DNA of 17,538 nucleotides from a virus. Shown here piece by piece: positions 17,249 to 17,402 of this stretch (position 1 is the first letter of the stretch; every line of letters begins with the position of its first letter). The stretch lies in UHGV virus genome UHGV-0202355; one strand, given 5' to 3'. Below the pieces are notes generated by a model. That model worked only from the letters and a program-made list of their open reading frames with translations, was not told the origin of the DNA and ran no database searches. A program made the translations under genes and the position numbers.

Positions 17249-17323
17249 TGGAGCGGGTAGCGGGAATCGAACCCGCATCATCAGCTTGGAAGGCTGAGGT
17301 AATAGCCATTATACGATACCCGC
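17249..17323 (-). tRNA. tRNA-Gly (anticodon UCC), 75 nt with encoded CCA
   Basis: Minus strand GCGGGTATCGTATAATGGCTATTACCTCAGCCTTCCAAGCTGATGATGCGGGTTCGATTCCCGCTACCCGCTCCA folds as a cloverleaf: 7-bp acceptor stem, anticodon loop CUUCCAA, T-loop TTCGATT. Nearly identical to E. coli glyT as recalled, with a compensatory 6:67 change. Confidence 0.9.
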
Positions 17324-17326
17324 ATA

Positions 17327-17402
17327 TGGTGCCGACTACCGGAATCGAACTGGTGACCTACTGATTACAAGTCAGTTGCTCTACCTGCTGAGCTAAGTCG
17401 GC
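17327..17402 (-). tRNA. tRNA-Thr (anticodon UGU), 76 nt with encoded CCA
   Basis: Minus strand GCCGACTTAGCTCAGCAGGTAGAGCAACTGACTTGTAATCAGTAGGTCACCAGTTCGATTCCGGTAGTCGGCACCA has a perfect 7-bp acceptor stem, D-arm GCTC/GAGC, anticodon stem ACTGA/TCAGT with loop CUUGUAA, and T-loop TTCGATT with one A-C mismatch in the T-stem. It is 3 nt upstream of tRNA-Gly. Confidence 0.85.

Follow-up and report, generated by a model that had tools for sequence, protein, structure and literature searches.

A phage-borne tRNA-Thr(UGU) and tRNA-Gly(UCC) module in the late region of a lambdoid phage genome, a probable supplement to two low-abundance host isoacceptors

We analysed a 17,538-nucleotide stretch of DNA, the virus genome UHGV-0202355 (hereafter the window), in which all long ORFs lie on the minus strand. 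ARAGORN called exactly two tRNA genes, with anticodons tgt and tcc, and both matched Rfam RF00005 with E-values of 1e-12 to 1e-14 and with scores far over the gathering score of 29 bits, each with a defined anticodon (Table 1). On the coding strand the order is Thr, TAT, Gly, the same strand that carries the lysis and morphogenesis genes. A first-pass annotation of this DNA had proposed two cloverleaf tRNAs with an encoded CCA, 3 nt apart on the late-gene strand and upstream of a terminator cluster and a lysis cassette. The coordinates, order, spacing, strand and encoded CCA proved exact, and three terminators, two holins and an M15 endolysin were found downstream.

Table 1. Features of the tRNA module and its downstream neighbourhood, in window positions.
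Feature	Position	Strand	Evidence and remarks
Putative sigma-70 promoter, TTGAAA-16-TAATAT	17464..17491	-	Consensus scan; about 60 nt upstream of tRNA-Thr
tRNA-Thr(UGU), thrU-like, CCA encoded	17327..17402	-	ARAGORN (tgt); Rfam RF00005, 72.2 bits
Spacer TAT, 3 nt	17324..17326	-	Between tRNA-Thr and tRNA-Gly
tRNA-Gly(UCC), glyT-like, CCA encoded	17249..17323	-	ARAGORN (tcc); Rfam RF00005, 65.6 bits
Weak terminator-like site, hairpin with T-run at a distance	17130..17150	-	Between tRNA-Gly and the structured RNA; conserved in relatives
Conserved structured non-coding RNA, remotely STnc100/PasD-like	16860..17109	-	Rfam match and covariation
First intrinsic terminator	stem 16887-16868, then T-run	-	Terminator scan; ends the structured RNA
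Second intrinsic terminator	16812..16839 (stem 16839-16822)	-	7-bp stem, T-run
Third intrinsic terminator	16703..16728 (stem 16728-16713)	-	6 G-C pairs, T6; conserved in relatives
Holin, Phage_holin_8	16295..16687	-	Pfam PF16931, E = 1.2e-22; first gene downstream of the module
Second holin, Phage_holin_3_7	16030..16305	-	Pfam PF05449, E = 9.7e-22
M15 peptidase endolysin	15650..16027	-	Pfam PF13539, E = 1.6e-12

Downstream of tRNA-Gly, a 140-nt stretch and a non-coding block are followed by the terminators, the holins, the endolysin, small ORFs and the small terminase subunit, and ORFs further downstream match DNA that is annotated in related phages or prophages as large terminase, portal, a ClpP-protease/capsid fusion, tail genes and tape measure. 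Eight terminator-like sites were found between positions 16000 and 17538 as against 2.1 expected, three strong ones being located between the tRNAs and the first holin, and the third intrinsic terminator lies immediately upstream of the holin start. In the plus-strand reading, the T-run and 3' stem arm of the second terminator are overlapped by a 20-nt repeat, CAGATATAAAAAAGSCCCGC, whose second copy (14015-14034) is located just downstream of the ORF 14068-14313. The minus-strand stretch from the endolysin to the small terminase subunit (13350-15710) holds six or seven small ORFs that match PHROG families of unknown function (phrog_7528, 4298, 33497, 2571, 4280, 1935 and 17397), and no spanin that would complete the cassette of two holins and M15 endolysin was recognisable within these positions. 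On the upstream side, the window ends 136 nt from tRNA-Thr and Q falls beyond it. The putative promoter found in this short flank has hexamers that are invariant and a spacer and flanks that vary among 13 distinct upstream variants, taken from near-full-length matches at other loci. This is the pattern expected of a real promoter, and we regard the site as a candidate.

The non-coding block, which extends from about 17109 to 16860, shows higher conservation than the sequences on either side and comprises a long hairpin (17109-17046), a multibranch domain of three hairpins (17025-16927) and a terminator hairpin (16886-16869) with its T-run. Across 28 distinct copies with 69-90% identity, 98.8% of the pair cells were paired, and compensatory changes were observed at 8 pairs (40 cells) compared with at most 3 pairs and 7 cells in slid-partner controls. 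The Rfam family STnc100 (RF02076) matched over its full-length model with 28.6 bits (E = 1.6e-4), which is below the gathering score of 47 bits and does not make the RNA a member, and a threshold-level STnc100 score was reached at none of the 12 loci with the structured-RNA block. STnc100 and PasD have been described as related prophage sRNAs of the Q-to-holin interval (bioRxiv 10.64898/2026.05.13.724894). The RNA of the window has in common with STnc100 the core CGGGAGGCACCCGRCACC, an end formed by an intrinsic terminator and this same interval; it differs in its sub-threshold score and in the additional 5' hairpin (17109-17046), which covaries and falls outside the Rfam model. Moreover, phage JLK-2012 carries a genuine STnc100 (107 bits) downstream of its tRNA array, and the core motif is shared with the RNA of the window. 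An ORF that overlaps the block (16768-17130, 120 aa, GTG start) was rejected as coding; it contains two terminators, frame-breaking 1-nt indels occur among the copies of the block and in its homologues, and neither Pfam nor PHROG gave a match for it.

The window is 86-93% identical to E. coli lambdoid prophages and to phages of the mEp460/cdtI structural type, the best match being an E. coli prophage with 92.9% identity over 95% of the window. The two closest prophages carry Q (or, after RusA at the position of Q, a DUF1133 protein), then small genes, a DNA methyltransferase, tRNA-Thr, tRNA-Gly and holins. The pair thus lies on the late strand between Q and the lysis cassette, the latter being present in the window itself and Q and the methyltransferase lying upstream in the closest prophages, which align up to the window end. 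The earlier suggestion that the pair lies where lambdoid and Stx phages carry tRNA genes was thus supported. One of them, in strain MB06234, has a PemK/MazF-family toxin gene (L002, 34991-35392) between Q and the methyltransferase, upstream of the tRNAs. The Thr-TAT-Gly unit is also annotated in the Stx2f phage phi467 (LN997803), in the order stxAB, tRNA-Thr, tRNA-Gly, S/R/Rz, and in vB_EcoS-683R6 between Q and S/R. PhiR47_1 has the array Met-Lys-Thr-Gly, JLK-2012 has Asn-Thr-Gly and SerU-LTIIb has two copies of the Thr-TAT-Gly unit. By contrast, in mEp460, which has homologous head and tail genes, the DNA methyltransferase abuts the holin (L141, 41013-42348) and no tRNAs, structured RNA or terminators were found at this junction. 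The cassette of tRNAs, RNA and terminators is therefore an optional insert at the junction.

To describe the distribution of the module we used a 55-nt query spanning the phage junction, which the host operon cannot cover, and required that at least 80% of its length be matched. The phage-type junction was found in 864 of the 5426 complete E. coli genomes, or about one in six, while 5421 of them gave at least one match of any kind (host thrU or phage-type copy). Representative genomes with the junction belong to E. coli, Shigella flexneri, E. albertii, E. ruysiae and Citrobacter braakii. The exact 20-mer junction pattern occurs in at least 120 IMG/VR viral contigs, which include at least two chance matches (L067 and L138); together with phi467, 683R6, PhiR47_1 and JLK-2012 these place the module in sequenced phage genomes. 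Among the loci compared, Thr-Gly alone was found 55 times, Met-Lys-Thr-Gly 39 times and Met-Arg-Thr-Gly 17 times, besides rarer forms. Four loci were excluded from the counts: L019, L067 and L138 are chance 20-mer matches in high-GC DNA with unrelated flanks, and L108 diverges part-way through Gly. The representative genomes also gave one chance match in high-GC DNA, and a 423-nt contig of a Corallococcus (myxobacterial) assembly with a coverage of 0.67 (L020) carries the module, probably as E. coli phage contamination.

In E. coli K-12 the corresponding genes form part of thrU-tyrU-glyT-thrT-tufB, with coaA upstream and spacers of 8, 116 and 6 nt, and this layout bears out the earlier remark that order and spacing in the phage differ from those of the host operon. 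The gene bodies themselves are close to those of the host. The tRNA-Thr of the window is identical to thrU at 75 of 76 bases, the sole difference being U16 to C in the D loop, and tRNA-Gly is identical to glyT at 73 of 75, with C6:G67 replaced by U6:A67, the compensatory acceptor-stem pair that the first-pass annotation had pointed out. Among the phage copies, the commonest variant agrees with K-12 thrU and glyT at every base (100% identity). In contrast, thrU and glyT are separated in the host by 8 + 85 + 116 nt and in the module by 3 nt. In the window, tyrU does not lie between the two genes, thrT and tufB do not follow and the flanks are unrelated. Similarity to K-12 ends 1-2 nt outside each gene body, and our search for a larger captured host fragment around the tRNAs found none past this limit. 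The first base of the spacer TAT corresponds to the nucleotide directly after thrU in the host, and the other two to those directly before glyT; the copies mostly have TAT and a few have TGT, both of which were admitted by the search pattern. Judging from these alignments, the module most likely derives from the host thrU-tyrU-glyT operon through the loss of tyrU and the spacers, the three bases of the spacer being a suggestive rather than proven trace of a tyrU deletion from a captured fragment. The module would then be a clean natural example of host tRNA capture, namely of thrU and glyT minus tyrU, with subsequent compensatory drift.

It is extremely improbable that the two genes are the host's own, located at a prophage junction, or that they complement a host tRNA gene destroyed by integration, even though tRNA genes are common att sites and the far flank of tRNA-Thr lies outside the window, which reaches neither prophage end. 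In the tRNA-dependent lysogeny described for other phages, the phage copy makes up for a host tRNA gene that is lost on integration (PMC10865867). Here, the thrU-matching query found at least one match in 5421 of the 5426 E. coli genomes, most of them without a phage-type junction. No second copy of either tRNA 3' end was found in the window, and none elsewhere in the two related prophages (L001 and L002, 40-49 kb) with up to 5 mismatches allowed; nor were relevant direct repeats found, and the reading of the locus as an att site or host gene was rejected. In relatives, the intergenic region behind a phage DNA methyltransferase aligns with the final 136 nt of the window. Furthermore, in the prophage of strain 52F4 (L001) the integrase lies about 15 kb from the tRNAs and adjoins ompW, and in the prophage of strain MB06234 (L002) the tail-fibre end follows potB about 26 kb from the tRNAs, with no integrase within the 49-kb stretch covered. 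Together with the arrangement of the tRNAs, which is unlike that of the host, the end of host similarity at the gene borders and the internal position of the module in sequenced phage genomes, these results uphold the view that the pair is phage-borne, against which a duplicated tRNA 3' end and an adjacent integrase had been named as counter-evidence. A recent preprint took tRNA hits near prophage Pas/STnc100 sRNAs as integration hot spots and reported no unambiguous tRNA hits in the Pas sRNA flanks of bacteriophage genomes (bioRxiv 10.64898/2026.05.13.724894). The Thr-Gly arrays, in contrast, are internal phage cargo that is present in sequenced phage genomes. Thus, tRNA hits beside prophage sRNA loci are here not scars of integration.

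Comparison of 132 copies of the module, which reduced to 42 distinct sequences, revealed how the tRNAs vary. At the Gly pair 6:66 (6:67 in standard numbering) the 42 distinct copies have CG in 14, UA in 24, the wobble intermediate UG in 3 and the mismatch CA in 1, and the T-stem pair 48:64 changes from GC to AU in two of the 42. Variation in Thr is concentrated at positions 16 and 20 of the D loop. The anticodon loops of the window tRNAs, CUUGUAA and CUUCCAA, are identical to those of thrU and glyT, and host-identical loops were found in 40 of the 42 distinct copies for Thr, the other two having a shifted anticodon, and in 40 of the 42 for Gly. The identity rules of ThrRS and GlyRS are well established. 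The tRNA-Thr of the window has the ThrRS elements G1:C72, C2:G71 and G35 U36, and tRNA-Gly has the GlyRS elements G1:C72, C2:G71, G3:C70, U73 and C35 C36. At the level of sequence, the pair thus shows the compensatory stems and intact identity elements of functional genes, and because the anticodon loops are host-identical and the stem changes compensatory we conclude that the copies are under purifying selection and, by this evidence, are genes and not relics. Copies with a thrU-type body but a UCU (Arg) or UUU (Lys) anticodon were observed in SerU-LTIIb (L008:3967-4039) and at Met-Lys-Lys-Gly loci. They look like natural anticodon shifts within the phage tRNA array, and their charging may be with Arg or Lys.

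The supply of rare codons had been put forward as one role of such tRNAs, with the codon usage of the late genes as a check, and we therefore determined the codon usage of 17 late genes of the window (4587 codons). Relative to a small chromosomal reference of about 7,000 codons from E. coli, which may not be the host of this phage, GGA and GGG account for 44% of the Gly codons in the late genes as against 29% in chromosomal genes (Fisher p = 1.4e-5) and 5% in ribosomal and elongation factor genes. Likewise, ACA and ACG account for 57% of the Thr codons as against 46% (p = 0.006) and 13%, respectively. GGR and ACR codons are thus over-used about 1.5-2 fold in late genes with respect to chromosomal genes. 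The excess of the strictly cognate codons is weak (GGA alone 18% versus 13%, p = 0.036; ACA alone 22% versus 18%, p = 0.2), and CAG, CTG, GTG and CGG rank above GGG and ACG in within-amino-acid enrichment. Moreover, the homologous structural genes of mEp460 have 43% GGR and 52% ACR, yet this phage has no tRNAs; codon demand therefore does not predict the presence of the module, which must be dispensable, and codon supply is weakened as a specific explanation. The over-use of GGA/GGG and ACA/ACG thus stood up in the late genes and lends codon supply modest support, whereas the weak enrichment of the A-ending codons and the same bias in a tRNA-less relative speak against it as the specific cause.

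Nevertheless, thrU and glyT are single-copy host genes that encode low-abundance isoacceptors, and supplementation is for this reason the most economical explanation. Starting from what was observed here of the genes, their host-gene identity, location, distribution and selection and the codon bias, we consider it probable that the pair, an accessory tRNA module carried by the phage in its lambdoid late region, supplements these two isoacceptors through its own promoter and late read-through. Transcription would start at the conserved sigma-70-type promoter about 60 nt upstream, and during lytic growth Q-antiterminated late transcription and prophage replication would add to the expression of the tRNAs. 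RNase P and 3' exonucleases would release the mature tRNAs, with the CCA already encoded. Because known identity elements and host anticodon loops are retained, both tRNAs should be charged by the host synthetases, and they would read ACA/ACG and GGA/GGG, raising the supply of two host isoacceptors whose codons the late genes over-use. The benefit would be modest and dispensable, not essential. In the lysogen, the three tandem terminators would keep promoter-driven transcription off the holin, and in lytic growth Q-modified polymerase would read through all three. Terminators in tandem would suit a cassette that brings a constitutive promoter right up to a holin gene, and the module may thus mark an exchangeable cassette in which three terminators insulate the holin from a probably constitutive promoter. 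Our search of the literature found no experiment on the role of these two tRNAs in phage or lysogen.

The low specificity of the codon argument is in favour of a different benefit, namely counter-defence, in which the copies would replenish tRNAs depleted by a tRNA-targeting toxin and so sustain late translation, the depleting agent being an anticodon nuclease or a tRNA-acetylating GNAT toxin of the host or of a competing prophage. In related arrays the Thr-Gly core is joined by further tRNAs, namely Lys(UUU), Arg(UCU), Met/Ile(CAU) and Asn. Lys(UUU) is the target of PrrC and PARIS. The window itself is without such a toxin gene, and no E. coli nuclease that singles out tRNA-Thr(UGU) or tRNA-Gly(UCC) is known to us. 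Counter-defence by tRNAs is established for other phages, whose nuclease-evading tRNAs differ from the host isoacceptor in the anticodon loop (PMC10264068). No such difference is seen in the window, and with the loops host-identical in nearly all distinct copies there is therefore no signature of evasion by mutation and only an effect of dosage would remain. We thus consider counter-defence unlikely, and the same holds for the depletion by either kind of agent; the sequences give no support to the earlier suggestion that the pair replaces host tRNAs cleaved by anticodon nucleases.

Supplementation of the two isoacceptors, as the preferred reading, has also to be set against the structured RNA that accompanies the tRNAs at some loci. 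The tRNAs could mainly be parts of a composite RNA unit, providing processing sites and possibly the promoter for the STnc100-like RNA, or be carried along neutrally in a mobile promoter-to-terminator cassette in which the structured RNA is the cargo under selection. Indeed, tRNA-Thr, tRNA-Gly, the stretch of about 140 nt, the RNA and its terminator move en bloc between phages that differ in Q and in lysis cassettes, the RNA covaries strongly, and a promoter scan by strict consensus gave no hit in the stretch from tRNA-Gly to the structured RNA. However, phi467 and PhiR47_1 have Thr-Gly without the RNA block, with about 290 nt from tRNA-Gly to the holin, and only 52 of about 138 loci contain the block. 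Compensatory evolution and intact identity elements are seen in the tRNAs as such, and a weak promoter-like sequence read from the alignment downstream of tRNA-Gly (TTGTAT-N16/17-TTTTAT) could drive the RNA independently. A composite unit in which the tRNAs serve the RNA appears to us quite improbable, and we would give the neutral hitch-hiking of the tRNAs beside a selected RNA no better a chance. Somewhat less doubtful, and advanced here only tentatively, is the possibility of a single autonomous, moron-like transcription unit, active in lysogens and made up of the promoter, tRNA-Thr, tRNA-Gly, the 250-nt RNA and the terminator. If so, an STnc100/PasD-like RNA would be made as the 3' trailer of a tRNA and freed by RNase P/E, which can be compared with the host 3'ETS-leuZ sponge, and a prophage would alter the decoding capacity and the sRNA regulation of its host together.

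As an accessory module, the tRNA pair is common in lambdoid phages of Escherichia and already annotated in GenBank phages, and is therefore not novel. The tRNA loci of phi467 were named as landmarks in a 2016 paper on Stx2f phages (PMC5189129), and with a presence in about one in six complete E. coli genomes the pair carries little weight as a discovery. Only the structured RNA next to the pair and the copies with shifted anticodons found in relatives are mildly new.

Among known systems, the closest are the arrays of the five sequenced phages phi467, 683R6, PhiR47_1, JLK-2012 and SerU-LTIIb, which share with the window both tRNAs, their order, the 3-nt spacer and the strand, with 95-99% identity over 154 nt, as well as the interval from Q (or toxin cargo, or methylase) to the holin. 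The copy of the window differs in combining Thr C16 with Gly U6:A67, found at only three other loci among those compared. Neighbouring arrays of known phages may add Met, Lys, Arg or Asn tRNAs, and the lysis cassettes differ as well, the window having two holins and an M15 endolysin whereas those of phi467 and 683R6 are of the S/R/Rz type. A more distant counterpart, likened here by description, is the ileZ-argN-argO tRNA cluster of Stx phage 933W and related EHEC prophages, reportedly described by Plunkett et al. in 1999. Like the module, this cluster is encoded on the late strand, where Q precedes it and cargo and lysis genes follow, and its tRNAs likewise read codons that are rare in highly expressed host genes, but it comprises Ile2 and two Arg tRNAs where the window has Thr and Gly.
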